This document shows, in pieces, positions 2,191-24,107 of a stretch of DNA of 37,539 nucleotides. The position numbers were made by a program, and so were the translations under genes. Positions within the stretch are counted from its first letter, which is position 1. The number at the start of each line of letters is the position of its first letter. The notes beneath the pieces were generated by a model. The model did not search any database. It worked only from the letters and a program-made list of their open reading frames with translations, and had not been told where the DNA came from. The stretch lies in NCBI GenBank assembly GCA_934869045.1, contig CAKXAF010000002.1:1-37539 (forward strand), given 5' to 3'. Source of the DNA: an uncultured Nitrososphaerota archaeon (lineage in GTDB: Bacteria; Bacillota; Clostridia; Oscillospirales; Ruminococcaceae).

Positions 2191-2676
2191 TCAGGCGCCC
2201 ATGACTTCCTCAATCGTGCCAAGATCCGTCCACTTCACATTGATCATCCCCGGCTCCCACACATTGTTGTCCTGCCCAGATCGCCACACATGGCCGTTGT
2301 GGGTGCAACAATTTCCCGTCATGTACGGGCTCGTGGACATGGCGACGAAGGGGAGGGCCTTCTTAGGATCATCCGACCAGTAGAACCCCCACTGGGCGGG
2401 CAGTTCCTCCGGCTCCTGGGGGTAGGTGTCGCTGTTGTAGTTTTGGATAAGGCGCACAATACGCCCAGCCGAAGATCGGCACAGGAACCCGTCCGTCTTG
2501 CCGGCCTTGCGCTCCAGCATGTTCTTCTTGGCGACCGCGGCGGAGAAGTCGGGAATATAATCCTCTTTCTCGTACAGTTCGGTGCCCGTCATGCCCTCGG
2601 AAGTCTCCTGCAAATCCTGGGCCCGGCGCATGCCGTATTCCCGCATAGTGATCAGCACAAACTCCTTGTCAGTCAA
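2191..2676 (-). CDS. Phage protein with a possible C-terminal carbohydrate-binding (CBM5/12-like) motif
   Basis: 161-aa ORF with a TTG start 9 nt after GGAAGGAG, overlapping the upstream stop (GTTGACTGA). The C-terminus YMTGNCCTHNGHVWRSGQDNNVWEPGMINVKWTDLG resembles the aromatic Y..G..v..nG.vw.s...N.W.P pattern of small chitin/carbohydrate-binding modules seen in phage tail accessory proteins. This is recognition by eye only. Confidence 0.55.
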   Translation of the reverse strand: MTDKEFVLITMREYGMRRAQDLQETSEGMTGTELYEKEDYIPDFSAAVAKKNMLERKAGKTDGFLCRSSAGRIVRLIQNYNSDTYPQEPEELPAQWGFYWSDDPKKALPFVAMSTSPYMTGNCCTHNGHVWRSGQDNNVWEPGMINVKWTDLGTIEEVMGA

Positions 2677-2998
2677 CTCCGTTCACTCCTTCCCGAATCG
2701 CATTGGCCAGTTCCACATAGGATGCCAGCTCTTTCTGAGCACGATACCGAGCCTCGTTGCTGAGGTCGATCTCATTGTCCATGCCTTTCTTCAGGAACTC
2801 CTCATAGTTGTCCCGGACATTCTGGACAATGCCGTCCCAGGTTTCCACCTCCACATGGTACTCGTCGTACTCATATCCGGCGAACTCCTCGGTCTCTGCC
2901 GGTTTCACATTTTGAAACAGCCGCACAAGGCTTCGGTTGGTTCCCGGGATCTGCTCCACGGTAAACTTCCCCGGATCGACCATTCCCTGTACTTTCAT
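2669..2998 (-). CDS. Small acidic phage protein, unknown function
   Basis: The track ORF 2669-3136 is trimmed to the internal ATG at 2998 (MKVQGMVDPGKF...). That ATG is preceded by AAAGGAG at 9 nt, and this start avoids overlap with the RT gene ending at 3013. Length is 109 aa. Confidence 0.6.
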   Translation of the reverse strand: MKVQGMVDPGKFTVEQIPGTNRSLVRLFQNVKPAETEEFAGYEYDEYHVEVETWDGIVQNVRDNYEEFLKKGMDNEIDLSNEARYRAQKELASYVELANAIREGVNGVD

Positions 2999-3012
2999 AG
3001 GTGCCACTCCTT

Positions 3013-4188
3013 TCAGGCCGCCCGATAAGGCGGATATAATCGTTGCAGCCGCCGACATTCCCTTCGGACGACTTTCTTGAGATTGAACATGGTATTCGGC
3101 TGGTAATACCGTTCCAATATTCGCTGACTGTTGCACTTGCGGAGCTGCCCCAGTCTTGAGATCAGTCCGGACGCCCTCTTGAACGAGATGACCCGGTTCC
3201 GGTCTCTCCGATGGTAGTAGATGTGCAGCGCCCGCTTGAGCCGAAACAGGTTGTGCTTTCGGAGGATCGTGTACCCATGCCCGAAACGATAGCCCAAGGC
3301 AGACGGAATTCTTGGCCGGCGGTGCCGCTGCTTTTTCTCAGGCAGGGCGTCGTGGACTTTCTCCACTCTCGGCGTAAAACCAACCCGGAAGATCTGCCAA
3401 TTTCCCTTCAACCGCAAGCCCACCTCGGCCAACCATGCCCGGATGTCCTCCAGCAGCCGCCTCAGCTTCCGCTTATTGGAGCTGAAGATGGTGAAGTTAT
3501 CCATCTGCCGCAGATAGTGGCTCACGCCATATTGCTTTTGGTGAATCATCAGATCCAGCGGCTGGAGCAGCAGATGCAGGAACCATGCGGAGAAGAACGC
3601 GCCGATCAGGACTCCATACTCCATCAGCGCGTCGTACAGCCAGAGCGTTTCCCGGTCCTTGAACAGACGTTTCAGCGCATGGATGACATACGGCGGGTCC
3701 ACCTCCACAAAGCAGTGGTGAATATCGCACTCCGCGCAGTATTGGGTGCCCACAGGGTCGTTCTTCATCCATTTCTTCAAAACCTTTACGCCATAGGAGT
3801 TGCCGCGCCCCGGCACGCTTGCGATGCAATACTTGTCCATGCTCCGCCTGATATGTGGAATCATGGGCTGCACCACCGCATGGTGGACATACTGGTCCGG
3901 CCACAAAAGCGGCTCATTGATATCCCGCCATTTCCCTTTGCCGCTATCCGCGTTCCGGTCCCATTTCCGCCGTTGCAGGGGTTTATGCATATGCTCGTCC
4001 CCGGTCACCAGGTCTTCGATGAACTTGCGAAGTTTCTTCACATATTCATCCTTGTTGGCCTCGATCTCCATGACCTTCTTATTCAGCGTGTGGTCGCCGT
4101 TGCGCCGGTGTCCCCGGTTGACCTCATCGATTGCCAAATAAAGATTTTCATCGGAAATGATTTGTTGGTAAATTCTAACTCGTTTCAT
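3013..4188 (-). CDS. Reverse transcriptase of a diversity-generating retroelement (atypical catalytic box)
   Basis: RT motifs are readable in the translation: WPDQYVHHAVVQPMIPHI (motif 2-like), VPGRGNSYGV, CDIHHCFVEVD (motif A Asp), GVLIGAFFSAWFLHLLLQPLD (motif B), YLRQMDNFTIFS (motif C position), GLRLKGNWQIF (D) and LGYRFGHGYTILR (E). The gene lies 221 nt downstream of the template repeat. Start is taken as ATG 4188 (AAGGAGG 13 nt upstream); the track start at 4218 is a GTG. Confidence 0.85.
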   Translation of the reverse strand: MKRVRIYQQIISDENLYLAIDEVNRGHRRNGDHTLNKKVMEIEANKDEYVKKLRKFIEDLVTGDEHMHKPLQRRKWDRNADSGKGKWRDINEPLLWPDQYVHHAVVQPMIPHIRRSMDKYCIASVPGRGNSYGVKVLKKWMKNDPVGTQYCAECDIHHCFVEVDPPYVIHALKRLFKDRETLWLYDALMEYGVLIGAFFSAWFLHLLLQPLDLMIHQKQYGVSHYLRQMDNFTIFSSNKRKLRRLLEDIRAWLAEVGLRLKGNWQIFRVGFTPRVEKVHDALPEKKQRHRRPRIPSALGYRFGHGYTILRKHNLFRLKRALHIYYHRRDRNRVISFKRASGLISRLGQLRKCNSQRILERYYQPNTMFNLKKVVRRECRRLQRLYPPYRAA

Positions 4189-4409
4189 CAGGGATAGTGT
4201 TCCTCCTTGTAGCCTCACAACTGTTCCATCGCCGCGGGTGGTTCCGGGGCGGGACCCGGCCCGAAGTGTACTAAGCTGTGTCCTGACGGCTCATCTTCAG
4301 CAAGTGCTGCGCGGTCAACGATGCGTAATAGAAAGGGTGAGGAACCCTGACTACCAAAAGGAGGTTTAGCCATACCCGACAGGCCCTTCGACCTGCGTCT
4401 GCTTCAAGA

Positions 4410-4551
4410 AGGCGACAGCCGATGTTGGAGTTGGAGTTCGACGTGTTGTTGTAGTTCACGTAGAAAGGTCCGTGATTCTGGTTCTGGTTATAGTTACCGC
4501 CATGGTGCAGGCACGGGTTACCACCGTTGAAATTCCAGTTATCCGGGACAT
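4410..4551 (-). repeat. DGR template repeat (TR), non-coding
   Basis: 142 bp aligning with 4736-4877 at a constant offset of 326 (124/142 identical). In the VR frame it reads DNWNFNGGNPCLHHGGNYNQNQNHGPFYVNYNNTSNSNSNIGCRL, which is rich in AAC Asn codons as expected for a TR. Confidence 0.9.
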
Positions 4552-4629
4552 CGTCTGCTGCAAAGTTGACCCCGCGCTTTCCCCTTACCAAAGGAAAAGC
4601 GGTTTATAAGAGCGAAATCGCTCCATTTT

Positions 4630-4689
4630 GAAATTAAGAAACAGCGGAGGTTGGGGGAAGGGACTGCGGTCCCCTCACCCCAAACCCCC
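4630..4689 (-). terminator. Candidate intrinsic terminator after the DGR target gene
   Basis: A long imperfect GC-rich hairpin spans 4646-4689 (about 18 pairs, CGCA loop on the minus strand). On the minus strand it is followed by GCTGTTTCTTAATTTC. It starts 19 nt after the stop at 4708. Confidence 0.5.
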
Positions 4690-4707: not shown

Positions 4708-7446
4708 TCACGCCGCCTTCGGCGGGCGCTCCTGGAGGCGACAGCCGATGCTGGAGTTGGAGTTCGACGCGTTGCCGCAGTACACGTAGAAAAGCCCGTG
4801 ACTCCGGTTCTGGTAATAGTAACCGCCATGGTACAGGCACGGGTAACCACCGCTGAAATACCAGACATCCGGGACATAGGTAGTCGTACTGCCAGAAGAT
4901 TCGGTGGGGTAGAGCGCCCACTCCAGACCGCTTTGAGTCGGGATAGTGAAATTGCTGGGGTAACCGGCGGTCGGCTTGCCCACCAGGACCCCGTTGGCGC
5001 TGTCGCTGAACTGGTTGGGATTCTTGATGACGTTCAGGCCGCTGCTGTTGTAATAGCACCCGTCCATCCAGTCGTACACGTTGTCCCACCAGCCCTCAAT
5101 GTTCCGGTACTGGCAGAATCCGTAGGAATCCCGGCTGGCCGCCGTGGTTCCCGTGTGGTACTGCATGGCGTCCGTCTTGCCGTTGTTCTCCTCGGAGCCG
5201 CTGGCCGAACAGCCCAGGCCGATGCGCTCGCCGTTCCAGTCTGCAAACTCCACCAGGAACAGCATGTTCACATACCAGAACTGGGCAAAGTCCATCTGCC
5301 AGATGTTCGTCCCCAGATTGTGGATATTGGTGCGGGCAATGGAACGGGTGATGTTGACCATCTGCGCCTGATTGGTCTCCGATTTCCAGTTGGAGCCGCA
5401 GTGGTACCGGCCGATGTAGGAGTGATCCAGCTCGCCCAAGCCATCGCCCCGATCCATATTCACAGGGTCCACATGGAACCCCTCAACAGGGCCGTCCGCG
5501 ATTTGCAGCTTCAACTTCTTCCCCGTCTTGGTCCACTTGAACCAATACTTGGGCTCCTTCACCATCACACCACCGGTCCGGGTAACCTTGGTCATGTCCC
5601 TCCACGGGTACAGGTTGTCAAATGGAGAGGAGCCGGAGCCATTATTCACTGCCGGATTGGGGTCGCCGAACCCGGTCGCCCCGTCCGTGCGCTTTCCCTT
5701 GGTGGAGCCGCTGCTGGTCCAATCCCACTCCACGCCGTAGATGGTGACGAACTGAGCCTTGACCTGTACCTGCTTGTCCGCGCCGGCCAGATAGTTGCCC
5801 CCCTCTGCCACCTTGACGGTAATTGTGGTGGTGCCTGTGGTGTCCTTTACACTGTTCACCGTCACCTCCCCCGTGATCTGATTGACGTTGCTCACGGTAG
5901 CCACACTCTGATTGTTGGAGATGGCGGAGATCACACCGTCCCCTTTCCGGGTCACCGTGAATTTGGCGCTTCGGGCGCTGGTGTTCAGGGTCACAGCCGC
6001 GGGGTTTACCGTCACCACCTGATCGCCCTTGGCGATGGACCAGGTCGCGGTCTTGCCGCCCACTTCGCCGTCCCACCACTGATGGTTGGAGTCCGGTGTA
6101 AAGGTGGCGGTGTATCCCGTCCCGGCGTTGATTTGGGGCTCCACCGAAACAGTCATCTTATTGCTGTCATAGTTGCTGTCCCAGGACGGGGTCTTGGGGT
6201 TGCCGTCGTACTTCGGCACGCTGCTCTGCTTTGGCACCGCCGCCAGGCTGGCCCGGCCAATGGTCCAGTTTACCGTCTTCTTCCCGGTGGTGCCGTCCGA
6301 CCACATGCCTTTCAGCAGGGTAAAGGTGGCGGTATGGGTGCCCGCGTTGGTCTGGGGTGTCACCGATACCGAGGAATTCTCCTGGTCAAAGTTGTCCCAC
6401 TCTGGCGTCTGCGGCGCGCCCGTATAAACGGGAGAGCCCTTCTGCACCGGGATGGGTACGATGACGCTGGTGATGGTCCAGATGACCTCCTTGGCCCCGG
6501 TGGAGCCGTCCCACCACTTGTAGTTGGGCGTGGGGGTAAAGGTGGCGGTATAGTCCTTGGCCTCTGTGCCGAACCGCTCTCCGCCGATGGTCAGCTTGCT
6601 GGTGTCATAGTTGTCCCAGGTGGGGGACTGGGGCTTTCCATTGGCCGCCAGCGCATTGCTCTGCTTCGGCGGCGAAGCGATGACCGCCCGGTCGATGACC
6701 CAGCTTACGGTCGCCTCATTCTGCCCTCCGGGGAATACATAGCCATAGTCCAGAACAAACTTGGCGGAATAGGTGCCTGCATTGACGCCATTGGTTTCTC
6801 CGGAAATGGTCATCTTTCCGGTGTCATATCCGGTCCACGCCGGCGTCTTGGTCTCTCCGTCATAGGTCAGAACTCCATTTTGAACCGGGACGGCCACCTC
6901 GATGGGGTTCACCGTCACCGTCAGGCTTGCGGTCTTGGTCACGCCCTCGTAGGCGTACTGGATCTGCACTGCCTGCTGCCCCAGTGCGGAGAACGCGTCC
7001 GGGGAGTGGGTGTATCCGGAGACTTCCTCCGAGGATTCGTCCGAATAAGTGGCTGTGACCACCATTCCGGCCGGATCAAAGGTCTCCAGATACTGGTATG
7101 TCATCTTTGTCGGGTTTGCCGTGATGGCGATGGACACCAGCACCTTCTTCACTGTCACGGGTACGCTGGCCGTCTTGGTGATCCGCCCCTCCGTGTAAGT
7201 AATGGTCACCTCCGTGACCCCATCCGTCAGAACCTGAGGCGAAACGGTGTAGCCGGTCACGTCTGAAGTAAGACCGTACCCATAGCCCGCCGTGACCACC
7301 ATGCCGGTCGGGTCAAAGGACTCCCCGGACTTATAGATTGTCTTGTTGGGCTGCTTGGTAATTGCCAGGGTCTCCAGCTTCAGAGCGCCGCCGCCACCGT
7401 TGCCGCCGGTCATGTTGAAAACCTTGCCGACGTTAGCGTTACTCAT
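4708..7446 (-). CDS. DGR target: tail fibre / receptor-binding protein with Ig-like repeats and a C-terminal C-type-lectin/FGE-like variable domain
   Basis: 912-aa ORF whose ATG overlaps the upstream stop (ATGAGTAA). It has two ~79-aa Ig-like repeats (..KQPNKTIYKSGESFDPTGMVVTAGY.. and ..NPTKMTYQYLETFDPAGMVVTATY..), four ~70-aa repeats, and a Big_2-like segment. The C-terminus ..WYFSGGYPCLYHGGYYYQNRSHGLFYVYCGNASNSNSSIGCRLQ is typical of DGR variable proteins. Confidence 0.85.
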   Translation of the reverse strand: MSNANVGKVFNMTGGNGGGGALKLETLAITKQPNKTIYKSGESFDPTGMVVTAGYGYGLTSDVTGYTVSPQVLTDGVTEVTITYTEGRITKTASVPVTVKKVLVSIAITANPTKMTYQYLETFDPAGMVVTATYSDESSEEVSGYTHSPDAFSALGQQAVQIQYAYEGVTKTASLTVTVNPIEVAVPVQNGVLTYDGETKTPAWTGYDTGKMTISGETNGVNAGTYSAKFVLDYGYVFPGGQNEATVSWVIDRAVIASPPKQSNALAANGKPQSPTWDNYDTSKLTIGGERFGTEAKDYTATFTPTPNYKWWDGSTGAKEVIWTITSVIVPIPVQKGSPVYTGAPQTPEWDNFDQENSSVSVTPQTNAGTHTATFTLLKGMWSDGTTGKKTVNWTIGRASLAAVPKQSSVPKYDGNPKTPSWDSNYDSNKMTVSVEPQINAGTGYTATFTPDSNHQWWDGEVGGKTATWSIAKGDQVVTVNPAAVTLNTSARSAKFTVTRKGDGVISAISNNQSVATVSNVNQITGEVTVNSVKDTTGTTTITVKVAEGGNYLAGADKQVQVKAQFVTIYGVEWDWTSSGSTKGKRTDGATGFGDPNPAVNNGSGSSPFDNLYPWRDMTKVTRTGGVMVKEPKYWFKWTKTGKKLKLQIADGPVEGFHVDPVNMDRGDGLGELDHSYIGRYHCGSNWKSETNQAQMVNITRSIARTNIHNLGTNIWQMDFAQFWYVNMLFLVEFADWNGERIGLGCSASGSEENNGKTDAMQYHTGTTAASRDSYGFCQYRNIEGWWDNVYDWMDGCYYNSSGLNVIKNPNQFSDSANGVLVGKPTAGYPSNFTIPTQSGLEWALYPTESSGSTTTYVPDVWYFSGGYPCLYHGGYYYQNRSHGLFYVYCGNASNSNSSIGCRLQERPPKAA
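4736..4877 (-). repeat. DGR variable repeat (VR) at the 3' end of the 912-aa fibre gene
   Basis: Partner of the TR. There are 18 mismatches, and 16 of them fall where the TR has A on the coding strand (10 A>G, 6 A>T). The VR ends 28 nt before the stop codon of ORF 4708-7446. Confidence 0.9.
6028..6894 (-). repeat. Four in-frame tandem ~70-73-aa repeats inside the DGR target
   Basis: Residues ~185-473 carry units such as VPVQNGVLTYDGETKTPAWTGYDTGKMTISGETNGVNAGTYSAKF.., PPKQSNALAANGKPQSPTWDNYDTSKLTIGGERFGTEAKDYTATF.., IPVQKGSPVYTGAPQTPEWDNFDQENSSVSVTPQTNAGTHTATF.. and VPKQSSVPKYDGNPKTPSWDSNYDSNKMTVSVEPQINAGTGYTATF.. Confidence 0.75.
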
Positions 7447-14205: not shown

Positions 14206-17200
14206 TTAGTTCCCCCTTCCTCTGCGCGTGACCCTCTGCCCGAGGGCGTTGTCCATGGGTCCTGCCATCTCGCCCACCAGCGTGCCGGTATCCAGGACCA
14301 CACGCATCCGTTCCATTCGCTCCGTCATTTCTGCCATTTCACTCCGAAGGGCGCGGAGCTCCTCCACAATGTCGCCGTTGTCCACGTTGACCACCGTTCC
14401 GCCGCTTCGGCCGGACTCGGCAAAGGCCAGGCTGGCCTGCCCCGCAAGGCCGATGGTCCGCTGGGGATAGAACAGGCTGTTCAGCTCGTCCGCCCCGCGC
14501 ATTACGTCGGAGAGGTCGAGGACCGGCCGGATCGTAGGCTGAGCATCCATATCCCCGCTGAGCAGCTCGGCCGTGATGGACATGGCGTTGGAAAGGCCGT
14601 CTGCGGCGTACTCCGCCACATTCGCCCCCGCAGCGTAGGACTTCTTCGCGTAGTCTGCCAGTCCCGTCACAAAGCCAAGCCCCGTAAAGTTGCCCAGCTC
14701 CCGGAAGACCCGAGAGGGAGAGTTGATTTTCAGCGTACTCTTGACCGCCTCTACGCCGGCCAGCGCCATGCTGGTCAGTTCGTCGAGGAAGGCGGATTTC
14801 GATAGGGAGACGCCCTCCGCAAGACCGGCGGGGATCTGCTGTCCCGTCTCGGTCCATCCGGCTTCCTTCAGGATCTTCGTGGCCGCCTCGGTCATTTCCC
14901 GCATCTCGGCCTCGGTGTCCTTCTTGATCAAGCCCACGTTTTCCGCGAACTCCTGCCGGAGCGACGCCAGTTGATCGGCTGTGTCCTCTTCCAACTGGGA
15001 CAATTCCTCCTGCCAAGTAATGCGGTACTCCTCCAGCTCCGCTTCCGCGTCGGCCCGCAGCTGAGCGATCTGCTCCTGGGTTTCCACGCGGAGGCCTTCC
15101 AGCTCCGAGGTGGCCTGTTCCCGGGCCTGAGCGTGCTTGACGGACCAAAGGGAGACGTACTTCTCCAGCTCGTCGTCGCTCATGGAGTTCAGCGCCCGGA
15201 TCTCTTCGATGGCGGATGGTCCCATCTCCTGGAGTTCGGAAATCAGGTCCGCGTCAACCCCCCTGGCGGAAAGCTGGCCCAGAATATCCTGCCATTCGCC
15301 GAACTCCTGTACCTGCCCCTCCAGGTTCTTCATCAGGGTATCGCTGCTGACGGCCTCCTTCTTTGTAACTTCATCGAAAAGGCCGTAGGACTGGTAGAGA
15401 CTGTTGGTGCGGGATTCCACCGCGTTCTGATACTGGTCGTTCAGCGACTGAATATCCCGTTCCAGCTGCTCATTGACAGAGCGAACCTTGTCGGCATACT
15501 CCTGCTCCAGCTGGATGCGCTTCTGGTTGGCGGACTCCTGAACGCTCTGGACGTCGGCGATATACTGCTTCTGGGCCTCATAGATCTCCTGCTCCAGTTG
15601 ATAGACCTTCAGGTCCATCTCCTCGCGCTCTTTGCTGCCCGCCGCATACCGGCTCTGAACACGCTTATAGGCGGCCAACTCGTCCGCCAGGCTCATTCGG
15701 CCGTAGTTCTTCTCCTTCTCGATCCAGTCCATGGAATTCTGATAGGACTCGTCCACAAGCTGGTTGCGAAGGGTATAGACCTCCCGGTCGATCTTCTTGC
15801 GTTCCTCGCTGCCCTCCATATACCGGGACTGCATCCGCTCATAGGCGGCCAGTTCCTCCTCGGTGCTCAGCCGGTTGTAGTATTTCTCCTCCTCGATCCA
15901 ATCGAGGGAAGCCTGATAGGTGGACGCCACCAGTTCATTTTGAAGCTGATAGACCTCCCGGTCGATCTGCTTCCGCTCCTCAGAACCGGCTTTGTACCGC
16001 TTCTGAAGGTTTTCCCATCCGACCAGCTGGTCTTTCAAACTCAGCTCGTCGTAATAGGTCTTCTCGTCCACCCAGTCCTTCCAGGCGTCGATGCCTTTGC
16101 TGCTGACGGCGATGACCTCGCCGATCATGTCGGAAGTGGCCTGGGCGGCCGGGACGATGCTATTGTCGACGCCGATGGCCAGGCCCTCACCGATGTTCTC
16201 GCCCAAATAGATGAACTCCCGGGAGGGAGAATGGCTGTCCAGGGCCTTTTTCGCCGCGTTCAGCGCGGCAAGGCCCAGACTGCGGCCCGCGGAGCTGGAG
16301 GCGCTGAACTTAGAGCGGATACCTTTGACAAAGCCCTGTCCGGCATTTTCACCGGCAGTCTCAAACTCGGGCTTCATGCTGTTGATTTGGGATACGGCCG
16401 CAGATGCCACCGTCCCCGCTGCCGTTTTTACGGCGCCGGAAGACGATAGGATCGAAACGGCGAGATTCCGCATCATGCCCTCAACTGCGGACTCAATCAC
16501 AACGACCTTTTTGTCTACAATATCCGCCATTGACTCCACAAGCGTCTCCATGGCGGAGCTTGCCACCGGGATATTCGACGTGATGGAACCGCGGACGGAG
16601 GTCAGCATACTGACCACGGCGCTGTTTACGGTGCCGCCGCAGTTGTAGAAGGCGTCGGCGAATCCGGAAATCCCGGCGTCGCCCATCTTCTTCATACTGT
16701 CGGCGAATTTGGTCAGGCCGCTGGTATTGACGCCGTTTACCCCTTCCGCCAGCTCGATCAGATCCCAGACCTGGGTGATGACGTCGGACAACTTGCCGAG
16801 GTCAATACCGGAAATCTCATTGTAGTAATCCTTCATGGAGGCGCCGAATTTGGAAATATCCGCGCCAAAGGACGCCAGCGTCTGATCCCCGCCGAACCAC
16901 TGGTCGAACAGGCTGCTGTCCGGAAGGCCGGTCGCCAGATTGGAAAGCGCGCTCGCAGCATTGGCCGAGGCCGTTACCGCTTCCGGCTTCACATCCTTGA
17001 TGGCCTCCGCATAGGCGGCCAGATCTGCGCCGAAGGCCGTGAGGTCGTCTCCAAAGGCAGCCAGATCGGTTCCTCCTGTAAAGAAGGAGAGCAGCCCGCC
17101 CGTATTGGGTAAGGTATTCGCCAGTTCCACCAGCGCCTGACCGGCGGAGGCGGAACTTTCCACGGCAGTGGGATTGATGTCGGCCACAGCGTCGCTGTAA

Positions 17201-20200
17201 GACTTCATGGCCGCGCCGAAGGGGATGATCCCGGCGGCAAAGGCGGCCAGATCATGGCTTCCATTGAAAAACTCCATGACTCCGCCCGCCAGGGGAAGGG
17301 ATTCTTGCAGCCTTGCCAGGGACTGGGCCGCCACAGCCGAGGCGGTGATAGCCCCGGTGTTGATGTCCGCCACGGCGTCTCCGTAGGACTTCATAGCCGC
17401 GCCGAAGGGGACAATACCCGCGGCAAAGATGCCAAGGTCGTTGCCGCCATCAAAGAAGGTCATCACACCGCCCACATTGGGCAGGTCGGTCTGAAGCTGT
17501 GCCAGGGACTGGGCGGCAACCGCAGAAGCCGTGATCGCCTCGGCGTTGATACCGGCTACGGCTTCCCCATAGGATTTCATGGCCGCGCCAAAGGGCACAA
17601 TGCCCTCCGAGAATTTACCGAGATCGTTTCCTCCCGTGAAGAACTCCATAACCCCGCCAACCTGCGGCAAAGCAGCCTGAAGTTTTGCCAACGACTGGGC
17701 GGCGACTCCAGACGCCTCCACGGCGCCGGCGTTGATACCGGCCACAGCCTCTCCATAGGACTTCATGGCCTCACCAAAGGGGATGACGCCCTCAGAGAAT
17801 GTTTCAAGGTCGTTCCCGCCGGTGAAAAACTCCATGATGCCGCCCACGTTGGGCAGGGATGCTTGCAGCTCCGCCAGGGCCTGCGCTGCCACAGCCGAGG
17901 CGGAGACCGCGCCGGCGTCAATGCCGGAAACAGCGCCGCCATAGGATTTCATGGCCAAGCCAAAGGAGAGAACTCCATCCGCAAAGGCCCCAAGGTCGTT
18001 TCCGCCGGTGAAGAATTCCAGCACCCCGCCCACATGGGGAAGAGACGCCTGAAGCGCGGAGAGGGCCTGGGCCGCGGTAATGGAGGCGGAAACAGCGCCC
18101 GCGTCCAACCCGGTCACGGAATCGGCATAGGCTTTCATCCCTTCCCCGAAGGGGAGCAGACCGTTTGCGAAGGTCTCCAAATCGTTACCTCCGGTGAAGA
18201 AGTCCACCACCCCGCCGATATTGGGAAGGGAGGCTTGCAGCTCTGCCAGCGCCTTTGCCGCAGTGGCGGAAGCGGTGACCGCTTCACTGTCCATGCCGGT
18301 CACGCTGTCGGAATAAGCCTTCATCGCCTCTCCAAAGGGAACCAACTGATCGCCAAAGGTCTCCAAATCGTTGTCGCCCGTGAAGAATGCGACCAGACCT
18401 CCGGTATTCGGAATGGTGTTTGCCAGCTCCACCAAAGTTTTTCCGGCAATGGCCGAGTTCGCAACCGCGTCGCTATCCAAACCGCTGACCGATTTTGAAT
18501 AATTCTTCATGGAGACGCCAAAGGAGGCAAGCTGCGCTCCGAAGGTCGCCATATCGTTGTCGCCGGCAAAGAAAGCGACAGCGCCTCCCGTGTTCGGGAG
18601 CGTGGCCGCCAGCTCCGCCATGGCCTGCCCGGCGATGGCTGAGTTCTTAACCGCGTCCACATCCAGTCCGGTCACCGCGTCAGAGTAGGCTTTGATGGCC
18701 TCTCCAAAGAGGACCAGCTGGTCGCCGAACGCGCTCATATCGTTGTCACCGGCAAAGAAAGCCACGGCTCCGCCTGTATTGGGCAGGGTAGCCGCCATTT
18801 CCGCCATGGCCTTCCCCGCGATGGCGGCATTGTTTACCGCGTCGGCGTCCAGCCCTTTGATGCTTGCAGCAAACCGCATCATGGACCCGCCGAAACCAAC
18901 CAGCTGGTTTCCAAACTCGTCCATGTCATTTTCGCCGGTGAAGAACCCCGCGATGCCGCCGCGGTTCGGCAGGGTCGCCGCCATTTCGGCCAGTGTCTTT
19001 CCGGCAATCGCGGCCGTGCTGACCAAATTGCCGTCAAGGCCGGCGATGCTGTTGGAAAATTTCATCATCGCCTCACCGAAGGGGACAAGCTCCCCGGCAA
19101 AGGCGGATAGGGAAGAACCGCCCGTCAGCCAGGAGGTCAGCCCTTCCAGCAGATCAGCGGCAGTAATCAGCAAAATCGCCTCGGTAAGCGCCTTTACACC
19201 ATCCAGCATGGCGGCGTCAATGCCACGGGCTCCATCGATAAACGGCTGCACGTTGGTCATGAACGCCGCGAGATCGGCGCCGATCTGCGGGAACGATCCG
19301 GATATGCCGCCCATAAACCCGCCGACAATACCGCCGATAAATCCGCCAATGGCGTTTCCGATGGTTTGCAGCAGCTTGCCGCCTTCCCCAATCAGCCAGT
19401 CGAGGCCGGGAATCTGCGCCAGGCCTCCAATGGCCGCCAGAACAACGGCAAGTTCCGCCATAACGACGCCCAGGCCAAGCACACCCACCATTGCGGAGGG
19501 AATCAGCCCGGCCAACGCGCCGAGGGCCACCATAATGCCGCTGAGAAGCCCGATCCCGACGACGCCTTTCAGAAGGGCGTCCGTGTCGATGCTCCCCAGG
19601 GCGGATACGATTCCGGAGAAGAAGGACATCAGCAAATTGACCACCGACTGGATCAGTGTCGGCAGATTGCGCGCCAAGCCGTCGATGACTTCGATCAGGA
19701 ACTGCATGATAGAATCCACGATCTGCGGCGTATAGGCCGCCAGCGCCGCAAGGACTCCGGCAATCAGCTCCAGAGCCCCGTTGGCAATCGCGGGCACACA
19801 CTCCACCAGGACGTCCACCAGGGTGAGCACCAGCGCTTTGACCGCGTTTCCAATCGCCGGGGCGCCATTGGTGATGACTCCGGCAAAGGCGATGACCGCC
19901 TCGCCCAGCTGTTGGGCAATCGCAGGGATTAGCGCGGCAATACCCGTGATAATGGACGTCAACCCGGCCACAATGATGGTCACGCCTGCCCCCAGGGAGG
20001 TAGCCAGGCCCGTGATGCCGACCGCGATGGCGGTGAGCCCAGTCCCAACCAGAAGAAGCCCCGCCCCAAGGCCGGCAATGCCGACGCCAATCAAAGCAAA
20101 CGCGCCGCCCAGCCCGAGAATGGTGGGGAGCAGCGGCGTGAGAAGCGCGCCGGCCGTCCCAATCACCGTAAAGGCTCCGGCAACGGTAATCAGCCCCTTG

Positions 20201-23200
20201 GCGATGGCCTCCCAGCTCATGCTTCCCAGGGTAAAGAGCACCGGGGTCAAAACCGCCAAAGCGCTTGCGGCTACCAGCATAGCGGCGGAACCGGCCAGTG
20301 TTCCGTTCATAAAATTCAAACCGACCGCCAGCTCGGCCAGAGCGCCGCCCATGGCAACCAGGCTTTTCGCAATGGCCTCCCAGCTCATGCCCCCCATTTT
20401 TCCGAGGGCCTCCGCCAAGACATTCAGCGCCGCTCCAACTGTGACAAGCCCCGCGCCCGTGGTAATCAAGTTCTTCGGCATGGCTTTCATGGCGATCGCC
20501 ACTTCCGCCAAGGCCCCGCCCATGGCCAGCAAGCCCTTCCCGATCTCCGCCAAAAACATGCCGCCGAAGTCCGCCATCGCAGAAGCAAATATCTTCATGG
20601 CCGCGCCGATCTCAATCATGGCAAGACCAGTGGAGATAAGCCCCTGTGCATTTCCAGTCAGTTTTGTGAATGCGGTAATCTCCAAAAGGACAGCTCCAAC
20701 AGAGCTCAGCCCCTTCACCAGCTCGCCCGCATTCATCTGCCCAAAATCCTTGCAGGCGGAGGCAAAGACCTTCATAGCGCTGGCCAGAACCAGAATCCCG
20801 GCCGCAGTAGCCATGGCGCCCTTGTTGACCTTAACCGTGTTCGTGAATAGAGAAACCTCCGCCATCAGAACGCCGACTCCGGTCAAGCCCTTTGCCACCC
20901 CGGCAAAGTCCAGCTGGGCCAGGTCGATACAGGCGGAGGCAAGCATTTTGATTGCGCCGGCAAACACCACCATCTGGGCGGACCCCTTGATGACGGAGCT
21001 GGAACCGCTCCCCAAAACTTTGGCCGCAGCCACCAGCGCGGTCATCAGCCCGGCGATCCCGGCAAGGGCCACGACCATCTGCTCCGGCTCGATATCGGAG
21101 ATTTTCTTCAGGGCGGAGGCCAGCAGAAGAACTGAGGTGGAAACGCCAATCATAGCCGCAGTGCCTTTAACGACACCCTTGACTTCTCCACTAATACGAC
21201 TAAAGATGGCCATGGAAGCCATCAATTCCGCAAACAGTACGGTAATGGCGCCCAGAGAAGCGGTCAGCTTGCCGCTGTCAATCAGAGAAATGGTTACGAT
21301 CGCGGCCGCCAGCACGGCAATAGCGGAGGCGATTTTCAGAAGGGTTCCAGCCTTCAGCTGGGTCTGATAGGCTTCAAAGCAGCCCCGCACCCCGTCCAAA
21401 ATACCCTTTACATTGTCAAGAAGGCCGCCGACATCGTCGAAAGACTTTGTCAGGCTGTTCATGAACTTGGTGATGCCTACCGCGATTCCGCCCAGAGAAA
21501 TGCCGTTGAGTAAATCAATCACTCCGCTGAAATCAGCGTTGCCAATGGCGTCTATCAGCGTGGCGGACAAGCCGCCGAGCACGCCGATGATTCCGCTGGC
21601 AATGGTTTTCACGCCGTTGAACAGGCTCTGAAGCATTTGCAGGAATTTGCTGTTTCCAACGGCGGAATCCATGGTATTTACCGCATCGTCCACCCCAAAT
21701 CCCAGGCCGCCGACTGCGTCGATCACCTGGCCGATTCGGGTCTGGATGCGGCCGAGAAGCGCCTGGAACGCCTCGAAGCCGGGGATGGCAAAGACGTCGC
21801 CGAGAAACCCGATAAAGGTTTGGATTCCTGATACAACGAAACCCAGAGCATCCGCGATACCCTGGGCCACTTTACTGAAGACTTTACCTTTCTTTGCCGC
21901 GTCGTTGATGCCGGTCAGAAAATCGCCAATCGCGGCGGTCACCGTAAGAAGACCATCTGCTAGGGACCCTATGCCTCCAGCCATAGGCATGACCGCGTTG
22001 ACCACCGCCATAATTGCCTGACGGCCCAAATCCAGCATGGAAAAGAGCCCTTTGAAGGTCCGCTGCAATTTATCCGCTGTTTCATCCGAAATCGTCAACC
22101 GCTCGGAAAAGCTCCGCAGCGTCTCCGTCAGCGCGTAGAGCTGGTCGGAAGTGGCGGGCGGAAAAATATCGCGGAACGCATCCTTGATCGGGGCGATAAC
22201 GCTTACCAATCCCTTGGCCGCGTTCCAGACCGACTGGATCAGGTTCTCCCGGCCGGAGGGGCGCAGAATCTTCTCCGTAAACTCATCCATGGAGACGGAG
22301 CCATCCCGAAGACTGTCGGCCAGCGTTTCGATCTGCTCCACCATCTCCGAGGTGTATCCGGCGGCCTTGCGCTCCTCCTGGGACATGCCGGACATCTTTC
22401 CCTGGAGATGATAGACCGCCTCGGACAAGGTTTCAGAGGAGATTACTCCATCCTTCAACCCCTGCTTCAGCGCGTCAGTAAAGCTGTCCGAATCCGCTAC
22501 CAGCTGGTCAAAGGCGTCGCCGCTCTCTCTGGCGACTGCTTGGATCGACTCTATAAAACCCGCTTCATCGGCAATTCCCTGATCCAGCAGCTGTTTCCAG
22601 CCGGAACTCAAGCCGCCGCTGAGCAGTTCGTTTCTCGCCTGGGCGGACTCGCCGATGATGCCGCCGATGGTGTTGAATACTTCCGTCAACAGCGCTTTTG
22701 CCTCGTCAAAGTCGCCAACCAGAATCTCCCACGTCTCGGTCCATCCCGACTGGGCGCTCTCCTTCAAGGTGTCCCATAGCTGGGTAAAGGTTTTCACCTT
22801 CGTAGCGGCGTCCTCTGCCGTCTGTGCCATCTGGGCAATTTCCTTTGCCTGGGCCTCCGTAAAGCCCTGCTGCACCAGATCCGCCTCGGTATATGCGCCG
22901 GCAAACTGCTTCAGGGTCTCCGTGAGGACTTCCGTGGTGAGCCACTCGCCCCTGGTAAGGGATTCCCGGAAGGAACCATACATATTGATGGCATTCTGGG
23001 CTCCGGTGCCCAGCAGCTCGGATGTGCGGACCAGGGCGTCCTGGAACACCTTGCCGCCCATGCCCGCGTTGACCACCGAGTTCCAGTCCATCAGGGACAC
23101 TCTGCCTGCGGCCAGCGCCTGGGAGAGCTGATACATGGCTGTGGACGCCTGCTGGGAGGTGGAGCCGGAAATGGCGGCCAGGTTCGCGATACCCTTGATG

Positions 23201-23733
23201 GAGTCAACGGATGTCTGAAGTTTTACACCAGCCGCGGTAAACGTGCCGATGTTCCGGGTCATTTCCGTGAAGTTGTAGATCGTCTTGTCCGCGTAGGTGT
23301 TCAGCTCATCCAGCGCCCGGTTCACCTGCTGAAGATTGGTCCCTTCGTGCTGGGTGTTCGCCAGGATGGTCTGCACCGCTCCGATCTGGGTCTCATACTC
23401 CTGAAAACCGGTTTTGATGGGGTCGATTGTAAGGGCGGACACAAGCCGTTTTTCCGTGTTCAGGGCTGAATTTGTAATGTTGGAAAGGGTCGTCATGGCA
23501 ACGACTTCAAGCGCCGAGAATTTCGCCCGAACCGTCTCGACGGAGCTGCTAAGGGCGGACATATTGCACTTCTTAGCAGCGTCGCCCAGGTTTTCAAGTC
23601 CCTTGGCAGCACCGTCCAGATCCAAACCCTGCTTGAGTTTGTCGAGTGTCGACAGACTGGTCTGCACATTCCGCTCAAACTGTCTGTTGTCAAATCGCAT
23701 CTCGACGATTCTCTCGTCGATGGTCCTGCTCAT
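14206..23733 (-). CDS. Tail tape measure protein, ~3175 aa
   Basis: The N-terminal core (..QQVNRALDELNTYADKTIYNFTEMTRNIGTFTAAGVKLQ..AISGSTSQQASTAMYQLSQALAAGRVSLMDWNSVVNAGMGG..) matches my memory of the TP901-family tape measure core. Long Gly/Ala-rich hydrophobic stretches and several tandem arrays follow. Start is taken as ATG 23733, which forms an ATGA overlap with the upstream stop and has AAGGAGG 10 nt upstream. Confidence 0.9.
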   Translation of the reverse strand: MSRTIDERIVEMRFDNRQFERNVQTSLSTLDKLKQGLDLDGAAKGLENLGDAAKKCNMSALSSSVETVRAKFSALEVVAMTTLSNITNSALNTEKRLVSALTIDPIKTGFQEYETQIGAVQTILANTQHEGTNLQQVNRALDELNTYADKTIYNFTEMTRNIGTFTAAGVKLQTSVDSIKGIANLAAISGSTSQQASTAMYQLSQALAAGRVSLMDWNSVVNAGMGGKVFQDALVRTSELLGTGAQNAINMYGSFRESLTRGEWLTTEVLTETLKQFAGAYTEADLVQQGFTEAQAKEIAQMAQTAEDAATKVKTFTQLWDTLKESAQSGWTETWEILVGDFDEAKALLTEVFNTIGGIIGESAQARNELLSGGLSSGWKQLLDQGIADEAGFIESIQAVARESGDAFDQLVADSDSFTDALKQGLKDGVISSETLSEAVYHLQGKMSGMSQEERKAAGYTSEMVEQIETLADSLRDGSVSMDEFTEKILRPSGRENLIQSVWNAAKGLVSVIAPIKDAFRDIFPPATSDQLYALTETLRSFSERLTISDETADKLQRTFKGLFSMLDLGRQAIMAVVNAVMPMAGGIGSLADGLLTVTAAIGDFLTGINDAAKKGKVFSKVAQGIADALGFVVSGIQTFIGFLGDVFAIPGFEAFQALLGRIQTRIGQVIDAVGGLGFGVDDAVNTMDSAVGNSKFLQMLQSLFNGVKTIASGIIGVLGGLSATLIDAIGNADFSGVIDLLNGISLGGIAVGITKFMNSLTKSFDDVGGLLDNVKGILDGVRGCFEAYQTQLKAGTLLKIASAIAVLAAAIVTISLIDSGKLTASLGAITVLFAELMASMAIFSRISGEVKGVVKGTAAMIGVSTSVLLLASALKKISDIEPEQMVVALAGIAGLMTALVAAAKVLGSGSSSVIKGSAQMVVFAGAIKMLASACIDLAQLDFAGVAKGLTGVGVLMAEVSLFTNTVKVNKGAMATAAGILVLASAMKVFASACKDFGQMNAGELVKGLSSVGAVLLEITAFTKLTGNAQGLISTGLAMIEIGAAMKIFASAMADFGGMFLAEIGKGLLAMGGALAEVAIAMKAMPKNLITTGAGLVTVGAALNVLAEALGKMGGMSWEAIAKSLVAMGGALAELAVGLNFMNGTLAGSAAMLVAASALAVLTPVLFTLGSMSWEAIAKGLITVAGAFTVIGTAGALLTPLLPTILGLGGAFALIGVGIAGLGAGLLLVGTGLTAIAVGITGLATSLGAGVTIIVAGLTSIITGIAALIPAIAQQLGEAVIAFAGVITNGAPAIGNAVKALVLTLVDVLVECVPAIANGALELIAGVLAALAAYTPQIVDSIMQFLIEVIDGLARNLPTLIQSVVNLLMSFFSGIVSALGSIDTDALLKGVVGIGLLSGIMVALGALAGLIPSAMVGVLGLGVVMAELAVVLAAIGGLAQIPGLDWLIGEGGKLLQTIGNAIGGFIGGIVGGFMGGISGSFPQIGADLAAFMTNVQPFIDGARGIDAAMLDGVKALTEAILLITAADLLEGLTSWLTGGSSLSAFAGELVPFGEAMMKFSNSIAGLDGNLVSTAAIAGKTLAEMAATLPNRGGIAGFFTGENDMDEFGNQLVGFGGSMMRFAASIKGLDADAVNNAAIAGKAMAEMAATLPNTGGAVAFFAGDNDMSAFGDQLVLFGEAIKAYSDAVTGLDVDAVKNSAIAGQAMAELAATLPNTGGAVAFFAGDNDMATFGAQLASFGVSMKNYSKSVSGLDSDAVANSAIAGKTLVELANTIPNTGGLVAFFTGDNDLETFGDQLVPFGEAMKAYSDSVTGMDSEAVTASATAAKALAELQASLPNIGGVVDFFTGGNDLETFANGLLPFGEGMKAYADSVTGLDAGAVSASITAAQALSALQASLPHVGGVLEFFTGGNDLGAFADGVLSFGLAMKSYGGAVSGIDAGAVSASAVAAQALAELQASLPNVGGIMEFFTGGNDLETFSEGVIPFGEAMKSYGEAVAGINAGAVEASGVAAQSLAKLQAALPQVGGVMEFFTGGNDLGKFSEGIVPFGAAMKSYGEAVAGINAEAITASAVAAQSLAQLQTDLPNVGGVMTFFDGGNDLGIFAAGIVPFGAAMKSYGDAVADINTGAITASAVAAQSLARLQESLPLAGGVMEFFNGSHDLAAFAAGIIPFGAAMKSYSDAVADINPTAVESSASAGQALVELANTLPNTGGLLSFFTGGTDLAAFGDDLTAFGADLAAYAEAIKDVKPEAVTASANAASALSNLATGLPDSSLFDQWFGGDQTLASFGADISKFGASMKDYYNEISGIDLGKLSDVITQVWDLIELAEGVNGVNTSGLTKFADSMKKMGDAGISGFADAFYNCGGTVNSAVVSMLTSVRGSITSNIPVASSAMETLVESMADIVDKKVVVIESAVEGMMRNLAVSILSSSGAVKTAAGTVASAAVSQINSMKPEFETAGENAGQGFVKGIRSKFSASSSAGRSLGLAALNAAKKALDSHSPSREFIYLGENIGEGLAIGVDNSIVPAAQATSDMIGEVIAVSSKGIDAWKDWVDEKTYYDELSLKDQLVGWENLQKRYKAGSEERKQIDREVYQLQNELVASTYQASLDWIEEEKYYNRLSTEEELAAYERMQSRYMEGSEERKKIDREVYTLRNQLVDESYQNSMDWIEKEKNYGRMSLADELAAYKRVQSRYAAGSKEREEMDLKVYQLEQEIYEAQKQYIADVQSVQESANQKRIQLEQEYADKVRSVNEQLERDIQSLNDQYQNAVESRTNSLYQSYGLFDEVTKKEAVSSDTLMKNLEGQVQEFGEWQDILGQLSARGVDADLISELQEMGPSAIEEIRALNSMSDDELEKYVSLWSVKHAQAREQATSELEGLRVETQEQIAQLRADAEAELEEYRITWQEELSQLEEDTADQLASLRQEFAENVGLIKKDTEAEMREMTEAATKILKEAGWTETGQQIPAGLAEGVSLSKSAFLDELTSMALAGVEAVKSTLKINSPSRVFRELGNFTGLGFVTGLADYAKKSYAAGANVAEYAADGLSNAMSITAELLSGDMDAQPTIRPVLDLSDVMRGADELNSLFYPQRTIGLAGQASLAFAESGRSGGTVVNVDNGDIVEELRALRSEMAEMTERMERMRVVLDTGTLVGEMAGPMDNALGQRVTRRGRGN
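15556..16077 (-). repeat. 3 x 174-bp (58-aa) in-frame tandem repeat in the tape measure C-terminal part
   Basis: Units start at 16077, 15903 and 15729 (DWVDEKTYYDELSLKDQLVGWENLQKRYKAGSEERKQIDREVYQLQNELV / DWIEEEKYYNRLSTEEELAAYERMQSRYMEGSEERKKIDREVYTLRNQLV / DWIEKEKNYGRMSLADELAAYKRVQSRYAAGSKEREEMDLKVYQLEQEIY). Confidence 0.85.
16741..19131 (-). repeat. ~13 x 186-bp (62-aa) in-frame tandem repeat array in the tape measure
   Basis: Unit consensus is FFTGGNDLxxFxxGxxPFGxAMKSYxxAVxGIxxxAVxASxxAAQxLAxLQxxLPxxGGVxE. The register was checked at 19131, 18945, 17457, 17271 and 16899, all separated by multiples of 186. Confidence 0.9.
20150..21000 (-). repeat. ~5 copies of a 56-58-aa hydrophobic repeat in the tape measure (approximate bounds)
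   Basis: Recurrent ..A(M/I)K(M/V/I)(L/F)ASA..D(L/F)(A/G)(Q/G)(L/M)...(V/I)(A/V/G)KGL..(V/M)G..L.E.. units. The MSWEAIAK motif recurs at 20212-20220 and 20380-20388 (168-bp spacing). KxFASAxxDFG motifs occur near 20590, 20765 and 20940 (~175-bp spacing). Confidence 0.6.
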
Positions 23734-24107
23734 GACCGTGTGACCTCCTTCCATGCGTAATCTGCGATCTGGTCAAAAATAGGCTGGATAGCAGGGTTGA
23801 TGTAATCTCTTCCCTGTACCCAGCCTCCGGTCCCAGTGCCATGTCCGTATTGCAGGATAATGGCAATGGGAACTCCATTTTGAACATTTGAATTGTGAAA
23901 CGAGATGGTGACGGTGTTGTCCCTGTTGGTAATTTTGTAATACCAGGACGCGGCCGTCTCTCCGGAGTCAACAGGCGTTGCAGACGCAAGGGCGGCCACG
24001 CCTTCCCGGCCAAACTTGTCCAGATCGCCGAGATGAACCGTCTCCTTTGCTCTTTCCAGAAATCGGGTCAGCTTGGAAAAATCGCCCTTGTGTCTGAAAC
24101 GAATCAC
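23730..24107 (-). CDS. HK97 gp10-like tail/head-tail joining component
   Basis: 125 aa with a GTG start 6 nt after GGGAGGAG. The pattern ..ATPVDSGETAASWYYKI......ILQYGHGT......DYINPAIQPIF resembles the HK97 gp10 family (V.tG.l..S....., .YGT, ...PF..pA). Confidence 0.6.
   Translation of the reverse strand: MIRFRHKGDFSKLTRFLERAKETVHLGDLDKFGREGVAALASATPVDSGETAASWYYKITNRDNTVTISFHNSNVQNGVPIAIILQYGHGTGTGGWVQGRDYINPAIQPIFDQIADYAWKEVTRS

Follow-up and report, generated by a model that had tools for sequence, protein, structure and literature searches.

A diversity-generating retroelement of a gut phage whose reverse transcriptase carries QMDN where the YxDD catalytic box is expected

The YxDD box is treated as a universal signature of reverse transcriptases (RTs), and the mutation of either of its aspartates is the standard dead-RT control. 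The window analyzed here, the whole 37,539-nt stretch of contig CAKXAF010000002.1 (assembly GCA_934869045.1, filed under an uncultured Nitrososphaerota archaeon and placed in the Ruminococcaceae by its GTDB lineage), carries a diversity-generating retroelement (DGR) whose RT reads QMDN at this position, raising the question of whether such an element can still diversify its target. A first-pass annotation of the sequence had offered three readings, namely a frozen fossil with a fixed variable repeat (VR), an element serviced in trans by another RT, and a functional non-canonical RT lineage; the conservation of QMDN, the ratio of non-synonymous to synonymous substitution rates (dN/dS), the turnover of VRs, and the lack of a second RT nearby favor the last of these and speak against the first two. 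We consider it very probable, from sequence comparisons, that the element is a working DGR in a temperate siphovirus-like phage from Oscillospiraceae of the gut, with its own RT drawn from a natural YxDN lineage that has here additionally undergone Y-to-Q and SQ-to-SA changes.

Reverse transcriptase and its catalytic motifs

The RT open reading frame (ORF) is intact, as had been annotated at first pass, and its product has the same length as its homologues. The mechanical listing opens the frame at a GTG at 4218 (401 aa); translation likely begins at the ATG at 4188, which is preceded by an AAGGAGG Shine-Dalgarno sequence and yields the 391 aa seen in the homologues. The protein matches the Pfam family RVT_1 over residues 119–271 (E 5e-8) and the reverse transcriptase family PHROG 1423 (E 1e-49). 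Among PDB sequences, phmmer returned a sole match, the DGR RT (bRT) of Bordetella phage BPP-1 (8ub7_A, E 7e-5). In this alignment, motif C (HYLRQMDNFTIFS on HWARYMDDIVVLG) sets QMDN against Y-M-D215-D216 of bRT, motif B sets LIGAFFSAWF on PIGSLTSQLF, and motif A sets CDIHHCF on SDFSKFF, within bRT LKSD138FSKFF. The first aspartate of the box is kept (Asp230) and the second is replaced by Asn231. Motif B sits 30 residues upstream of motif C. No other YxDD occurs anywhere in the RT protein.

In the AlphaFold model of the RT (mean predicted local distance difference test score of 74), M-D-N sits in the turn between strands 222–228 and 231–236 of a beta-hairpin. The top PDB fold match of the model is 8ub7_A (E 6e-13, template modelling score 0.79, target-normalised), with group II intron RTs second. 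Both departures described in the first-pass annotation of this DGR RT, from YxDD to QMDN and from SQ to SA, are thus borne out: in the sequence alignment and in the fold match alike, QMDN falls on YMDD and SA on SQ. Membership among the DGR RTs is indicated by bRT being both the only PDB sequence match and the best fold match, and relatives at 24–50% RT identity were located in cassettes with a template repeat (TR) and a VR. Of the two signatures of DGR RTs, (I/L/V)GxxxSQ reads LIGAFFSA here and YxDD reads QMDN, the latter departure being conserved rather than sporadic.

Two other assignments were considered and rejected. The group II intron RT/maturase model TIGR04416 scored 38.8 bits with a cut-off of 300, and an Rfam scan of the window returned no group II intron RNA. 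The NCBIfam equivalog models for defence RTs (Drt3a, Drt4, and Drt5) scored 14–18 bits with cut-offs of 200–550.

Conservation of the QMDN box

We compared 135 loci (134 fetched, plus the window), in which motif C reads QMDN in 91, Y(M/I)DN in about 37, and YxDD in six. Among the best 120 protein clusters, all those above about 60% identity with a readable motif C carry RQMDN, together with SA or SS in motif B; clusters at about 50% identity carry RYMDN with SQ, and in more distant relatives, at 36–55% identity to the RT of the window, Y(M/I)DN is combined with SQ. Some QMDN clusters comprise thousands of member sequences (e.g., 4607 for P0010). All four residues are kept in 81/81 full-length QMDN genes, with codons varying between CAG and CAA, GAC and GAT, and AAC and AAT, and the motif A aspartate and first motif C aspartate are invariant. 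The median dN/dS of the RT across these 81 genes is 0.075 (2657 pairs) at a median dS of 1.4. Judged by these substitution patterns, the RT gene, QMDN included, has been under purifying selection throughout the divergence of the QMDN clade.

A sequencing or assembly error at the site can be dismissed, since the same four residues recur in 91 independently assembled loci from many studies, in four codon combinations. The first-pass view that the change is not a single recent lesion likewise stands, with QMDN invariant across those loci, synonymous codon variants present, and a dN/dS of about 0.075. The same ratio bears on the reading of the element as a frozen fossil, in which the D-to-N and Y-to-Q changes put an end to RT activity and the VR had already diverged by then. 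The non-canonical catalytic box, taken alone, would suit such a history, but purifying selection throughout the QMDN divergence does not.

An exhaustive search of 50%-identity representatives returned 1754 relatives, among which those alignable across the motifs comprise 29 with D-N and 85 with D-D at the box. On the distribution of motifs across these relatives, D-to-N is a clade-wide state, with Y-to-Q and Q-to-A as later changes confined to one phage sub-clade. A crude neighbor-joining tree places the window RT in one main DN clade, sister to a YMDD cluster, with scattered DN tips among DD relatives; this tree is too weak to choose between a single and several origins of D-to-N. As for motif B, many YxDD relatives in this RT branch carry SA, SS, or SP.

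The tyrosine of the box is also replaced elsewhere in the branch, by NIDD and NMDD (Lactobacillus phage LBR48 and several clusters), and by HVDD and HMDN; examples are L135 (LBR48, GU967410.1 822-1886) and the representatives P0147, P0151, P0154, P0200, P0204, P0142, and P0225. Because such boxes occur in DGR-type RTs of the branch, its first box position is, as far as these sequences go, much less constrained than the Y/F reported by DiGReF. The top match to the RT among INPHARED phages is 41.8% identical, and none of the INPHARED matches inspected is a cultured phage with a DN motif (LBR48 has NIDD and a Butyrivibrio phage YMDD); these matches also include a fecal scaffold with YMDN.

Turnover of the variable repeat

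In the window, TR and VR differ by 18 mismatches, 16 at TR adenines and two at C. A TR/VR pair was recovered in 61 QMDN loci (those with enough upstream DNA), in which 1031/1071 within-repeat mismatches (96%) lie at TR adenines and about 42% of adenines are changed; the share is also 96% over 60 distinct QMDN pairs. In 24 YxDN loci, the corresponding share of mismatches at TR adenines is 95%. The metagenome-assembled genome (MAG) CALDMA01, from an uncultured Oscillospiraceae, holds one QMDN and two YMDN loci, each with its own adenine-specific TR/VR pair.

Comparison of near-identical phages dates this diversification. The loci L001 and L002, from different sequencing runs and samples, have identical RT genes and identical TRs, with only 19 mismatches over 8400 aligned nt; 16 of these lie in the 142-nt VR, 15 of them at TR adenines. 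Between L113 and L114, there are 16 mismatches over 8386 nt, 15 of which lie in the VR, all 15 at TR adenines, and the pairs L111/L113 and L012/L107 show similar VR-concentrated differences. Overall, phages with no differences across the 1176 nt of the RT and 0–1 across 1500 nt of the target body differ at 15–22 VR sites, nearly all of them TR adenines. In every TR cluster common to several phages, those with 3–10 members included, the number of distinct VRs equals the number of members, except for L006 and L007.

In RT-identical phages with near-identical flanks, nearly all differences are thus confined to VR sites that correspond to TR adenines. Retrohoming is, by these comparisons, recent, and VR turnover is much younger than the QMDN state. 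Ongoing mutagenic retrohoming is thereby indicated in close relatives of the window element, by comparison of assemblies. The fossil reading could point to the identical VRs of L006 and L007, though these come from sibling assemblies; it does not accommodate VR diversification younger than QMDN itself, seen in RT-identical phages with differing VRs, and we regard it as very improbable.

Proposed mechanism and its alternatives

We propose that an RNA spanning the TR and a structured spacer, the RT-18 RNA that lies next to the RT gene, would be transcribed, and that the RT would bind this spacer and copy the TR into complementary DNA (cDNA) with misincorporation opposite adenines. The cDNA would then replace the VR at the 3′ end of the tail-fiber gene, altering receptor-binding residues. 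In the active site, Asp155 of motif A and Asp230, the first motif C aspartate, would hold the metals, with Asn231 in the place of the third carboxylate. Catalysis would probably be slower and may prefer Mn2+, by analogy with the Ty1 RT mutant D211N, and a slow RT would be tolerable for a DGR, as only about 140 nt of cDNA are needed and DGR RTs are slow already. We infer that the QMDN protein is the polymerase, as we do its priming mode, metal usage, and kinetics.

The plausibility of two-aspartate catalysis comes from three published observations. In Ty1 RT, the D211N mutant (second Asp of YXDD) still polymerises, with a kpol 223-fold lower and a preference for Mn2+ (PMC2148107). In bRT, where the catalytic residues are D138, D215, and D216 and where Q187 touches the base of the incoming deoxynucleoside triphosphate, the structure shows a cation adjacent to D138 and D215 (bioRxiv 10.1101/2023.10.23.563531). 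The enzyme is also intrinsically slow, a slowness tied to adenine mutagenesis (PMC7826257). The premise of the first-pass annotation, that both YxDD aspartates and the motif A aspartate coordinate the catalytic metals in all characterised RTs, needs relaxing on this point, as the polymerising Ty1 mutant means that the second aspartate is not strictly essential.

The loss of the SQ glutamine is of little concern, given that bRT Q187P retains adenine mutagenesis (PMC7826257), that DiGReF found about 10% non-SQ DGRs, with the last two motif residues variable in 15/155 (PMC3521204), and that SA, SS, and SP recur among the YxDD relatives. The first-pass remark that DGR RTs typically have SQ was right as to its absence here, but the weight of that absence is softened by the frequency of the alternatives in this branch.

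Several points weigh against a working QMDN enzyme. In early studies of retroviral RTs, mutation of any of the three aspartates severely disrupted the polymerase (summarised in PMC2148107), Ty1 D211N loses transposition in vivo (PMC2148107), and both box aspartates were 100% conserved in the 155 DGR RTs of DiGReF (PMC3521204). Catalysis by YxDN and QMDN RTs is argued from sequence and analogy, and the VR turnover described above is read from comparisons between assemblies.

In an alternative reading, the QMDN protein would be a catalytically dead RNA-binding scaffold and the cDNA would come from another RT of the phage or host. The requirement for the second motif C aspartate reported in retroviral RTs (summarised in PMC2148107) would suit such trans-servicing, as would the finding that avd, TR, and brt of BPP-1, when supplied in trans on a plasmid, can still diversify the target (PMC5758913), and co-resident DGRs do exist, with three loci (L010, L026, and L035) in the MAG CALDMA01. 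However, all three of the RTs in this MAG are of the DN type, and a family hidden Markov model found no second RT in the six-frame translation of the 37.5-kb window or in 137 loci, including 852 kb around 91 QMDN RTs; the scan covered these loci and not complete host genomes, and it gave no sign of a distant helper RT. Each DGR RT uses the RNA flanking its own TR (bioRxiv 10.1101/2023.10.23.563531), and a conserved RT-18 abuts the RT here. Moreover, the motif A aspartate and the first motif C aspartate are invariant, which would be needless in a pure scaffold, and adenine-specific VRs are found throughout the YxDN clade, across many hosts and phages. We hold trans-servicing to be improbable, if somewhat less so than a fossil element, and retain catalysis by the resident RT as the best explanation.

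Cassette organisation and phage context

The DGR cassette lies on the minus strand in the order of target with 3′ VR, inverted repeat, TR, RT-18 RNA, and RT (Table 1), with no ORF between the target and the RT. The VR ends 26 nt before the target stop codon, and the RT start follows the TR at a distance of 222 nt.

Table 1. Features of the DGR and its RT in the window.
Feature	Position	Strand	Extent or content	Basis or remark
DGR reverse transcriptase gene	3013..4188	-	391 aa	ORF; Pfam, PHROG, and PDB matches
QMDN at the YxDD catalytic box position	3496..3507	-	residues 228-231	CAG ATG GAT AAC (read 3507-3496)
Motif C hairpin YLRQMDNFTIFS	3481..3516	-	residues 225-236	sequence, bRT alignment, model strands
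Motif B LIGAFFSAWF	3580..3609	-	residues 194-203	DGR-signature I-G kept, SQ to SA
Motif A AECDIHHCF	3709..3735	-	residues 152-160	catalytic Asp155; Glu153 at -2
Covarying RT residues 153 and 233	3730-3732 and 3490-3492	-		representatives P0100-P0264
RT-18 RNA (Rfam RF03021)	4203..4309	-	full-length match	68.5 bits, gathering score 41.3
Template repeat (TR)	4410..4551	-	142 nt, 41 adenines	direct repeat D1, alignment
G+C-rich inverted repeat I1	4646..4688	-	17-nt arms, 76% complementary	about 20 nt past target stop
Variable repeat (VR)	4736..4877	-	3′ end of target gene	repeat alignment to TR
Target gene, phage tail protein with Ig-like repeats and C-terminal VR	4708..7446	-	912 aa	Pfam Big_3; PHROG 5302

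The match of the target to the PHROG 5302 tail protein spans residues 624–911. A PDB sequence search with its C-terminal 330 aa gave a chance match only, which leaves a lectin-like fold of the VR domain no more than putative. Inside the target gene, diverged direct repeats (families D2 and D3) recur with a spacing of ~213–225 nt at 6035-6853 of the window (+ coordinates), corresponding to tandem immunoglobulin (Ig)-like, Big_3-type domains of the target body. The inverted repeat at 4646-4688 is a candidate hairpin of the type located after the VR in DGR targets, or alternatively a candidate terminator of the tail gene. A further hairpin with 12-nt arms (CGCTTTTCCTTT/AAGGGGAAAGCG) lies at 4575-4601 (minus strand), ~25 nt upstream of the TR, and may belong to the portion of the DGR RNA that precedes the template.

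The RT-18 RNA holds the ribosome-binding site of the RT in its 3′ end and was found in the equivalent place in 16 related loci; the sites listed are those of the window, L001, L005, L006, L019, L020, L031, L036, L040, L042, L045, L050, L130, L135, and L137. It is absent from L048, L049, L053, L054, and L136. The idea that RT-18 is specific to the DN clade was rejected, as it also stands beside a YMDD RT (L050) and the NIDD RT of LBR48 (L135); on this distribution, RT-18 is a marker of a broader Firmicutes DGR branch. It was described as an orphan motif adjoining RT genes by Weinberg et al. 2017, who assigned another motif, RT-10, to the spacer of BPP-1 and supposed that the remaining RT motifs might have the corresponding function in further DGRs (PMC5737381). 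Given that its position matches that of the BPP-1 spacer RNA, RT-18 is by analogy likely the spacer and primer RNA of the Firmicutes DGR branch.

About 74% of DGRs have the Avd accessory protein, which is hence not a strict hallmark of the class. In the genes flanking the cassette, neither Pfam nor PHROG gave an Avd-like match, although this search did not scan the whole window exhaustively. Directly after the RT stop codon begins a 114-aa ORF (2669-3013, minus strand) with no Pfam or PHROG match, which is present in 84/84 QMDN loci with enough downstream sequence and in no YxDN or YxDD locus; it may be an accessory factor or merely a gene of the QMDN phage lineage.

The rest of the window is a siphovirus-like late module comprising terminase, portal, protease, major tail protein, tape measure, Dit, and tail endopeptidase genes, with the target gene at the end of its tail portion (tape measure, Dit, and tail endopeptidase). 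The tape measure protein (14206-23754, minus strand) is 3182 aa in length, which implies an unusually long tail or extra domains, and matches PHROG 4372 and other tape measure families. Relatives of the element reside in prophages of Oscillospiraceae (e.g., Lawsonibacter, Oscillibacter, and Dysosmobacter) as well as in viral contigs from the human gut.

Active-site covariation and mutation spectrum

Two positions near the catalytic residues differ between the DN and DD RTs among the 50%-identity representatives. At -2 from the motif A aspartate, Lys is found in 68/85 DD RTs but in none of the 29 DN RTs, where the residue is mostly Glu (20/29) or Gln (6/29); at +2 after the box, the DD RTs have Val, Ile, or Leu and 23/29 DN RTs have Thr. 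In about a dozen YxDN loci, the -2 position is occupied by S, C, T, A, or L, with Lys still absent. We tried Glu at -2 as a universal compensator and found that this holds in part only (E or Q in 26/29 representatives); the absence of Lys alone is general.

This covariation suggests a remodelled active site in the DN enzymes. Because D-to-N covaries with the -2 position of motif A and the +2 position of the box, we tentatively raise the possibility, which we think rather doubtful, that the YxDN clade represents an alternative, naturally evolved RT active-site architecture and not merely a tolerated defect. The covariation would fit either a shift of the third carboxylate from motif C onto the strand of motif A, or chemistry that has been slowed or retuned and thereby influences which mutations arise.

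Two observations on the mutation spectrum are relevant. A-to-C changes at TR adenines make up 33/1031 in QMDN loci and 15/346 in YxDN loci, compared to 18/73 in a small control of five YxDD relatives. In addition, the first C of a CAC (His) codon of the TR is recurrently changed in 24/61 QMDN loci, mostly to T (VR nt 4833 / TR nt 4507 in the window, minus strand, context CTGCACC). The changed codon gives Tyr or Phe, or Val with G, and CAC-to-TAC is also seen in seven YxDN loci. This change may reflect either strong selection for an aromatic residue beyond adenine mutagenesis or a second, context-specific misincorporation. Both the rarity of A-to-C and the recurrence of CAC-to-TAC may stem from selection or from a property of the enzyme, and both fit the alternative active-site architecture.

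Comparison with known systems

The BPP-1 DGR (bRT-Avd with mtd as target; PDB 8UB7) shares with the window element the order of target with 3′ VR, TR, structured spacer RNA, and RT, the adenine-specific VR changes, and a phage tail receptor-binding protein as target. Its bRT is the best match in sequence and fold, with the I-G of motif B (bRT I181 and G182), the motif A aspartate, and the first motif C aspartate all kept. The two enzymes differ at the box (QMDN in the window, YMDD in bRT, i.e., Asn in place of D216) and at Q187, which is Ala here, and share only about 19% identity; the systems also differ in that no Avd gene was found beside the window element and that the spacer is RT-18 rather than the RT-10 of BPP-1 (PMC5737381). 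In having no recognisable accessory gene, and in its occurrence in Firmicutes and in the human gut, the element resembles the Avd-less A1 DGRs (target-TR-RT) of Wu et al. 2018 (PMC5758913), a survey whose main text contains no mention of any YxDD departure.

Close counterparts are the YxDN DGRs of other Oscillospiraceae, Clostridia, and gut phage contigs (e.g., L019-L046, L130-L134, and MT838586.1), which share the D-to-N change, the RT-18 RNA, the target-TR-RT order, a TR of about 140 nt, and adenine-specific VR changes. These RTs, 36–55% identical to that of the window, differ in keeping the tyrosine and SQ (YMDN or YIDN with SQW), and their loci lack the 114-aa ORF. Outside the DGRs, Ty1 RT D211N has the same substitution at the same position, with polymerisation possible in the presence of Asn, but it is an engineered mutant of a eukaryotic long terminal repeat retrotransposon that does not transpose (PMC2148107), whereas the asparagine of the window RT is natural and conserved, in an element judged above to be active in vivo. 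Among DGR RTs that break a signature, the closest precedent is that of the gut phage crAssE-Sib, which reads GxxxSP rather than GxxxSQ and was missed by the motif-dependent myDGR; it departs in motif B only and keeps YxDD (PMC11054128).

No description of a DGR RT with a D-N motif C turned up in full-text searches for the variant motifs, which covered open-access papers. Judged by its sequence, the element is an ordinary DGR in architecture and output, and what sets it apart is a non-canonical, apparently functional box common to a sizeable gut lineage.

Meaning for DGRs and reverse transcriptases

With the present analysis, the orphan Rfam motif RT-18 gains a genomic context and a likely role. 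DGR or RT finders and curators that require SQ or YxDD would discard elements of this kind as degenerate, as illustrated by the failure of myDGR on an SP-type RT (PMC11054128), and counts of gut-phage DGRs may be underestimates. The QMDN and YxDN RTs form a large, natural, gut-abundant lineage that lacks the second aspartate of the box yet bears every genomic sign of current activity. For enzymologists, the lineage is a naturally occurring case in which to study the function of the third RT carboxylate and, within DGRs, to examine the link between slow chemistry and adenine mutagenesis that was proposed for bRT (PMC7826257).

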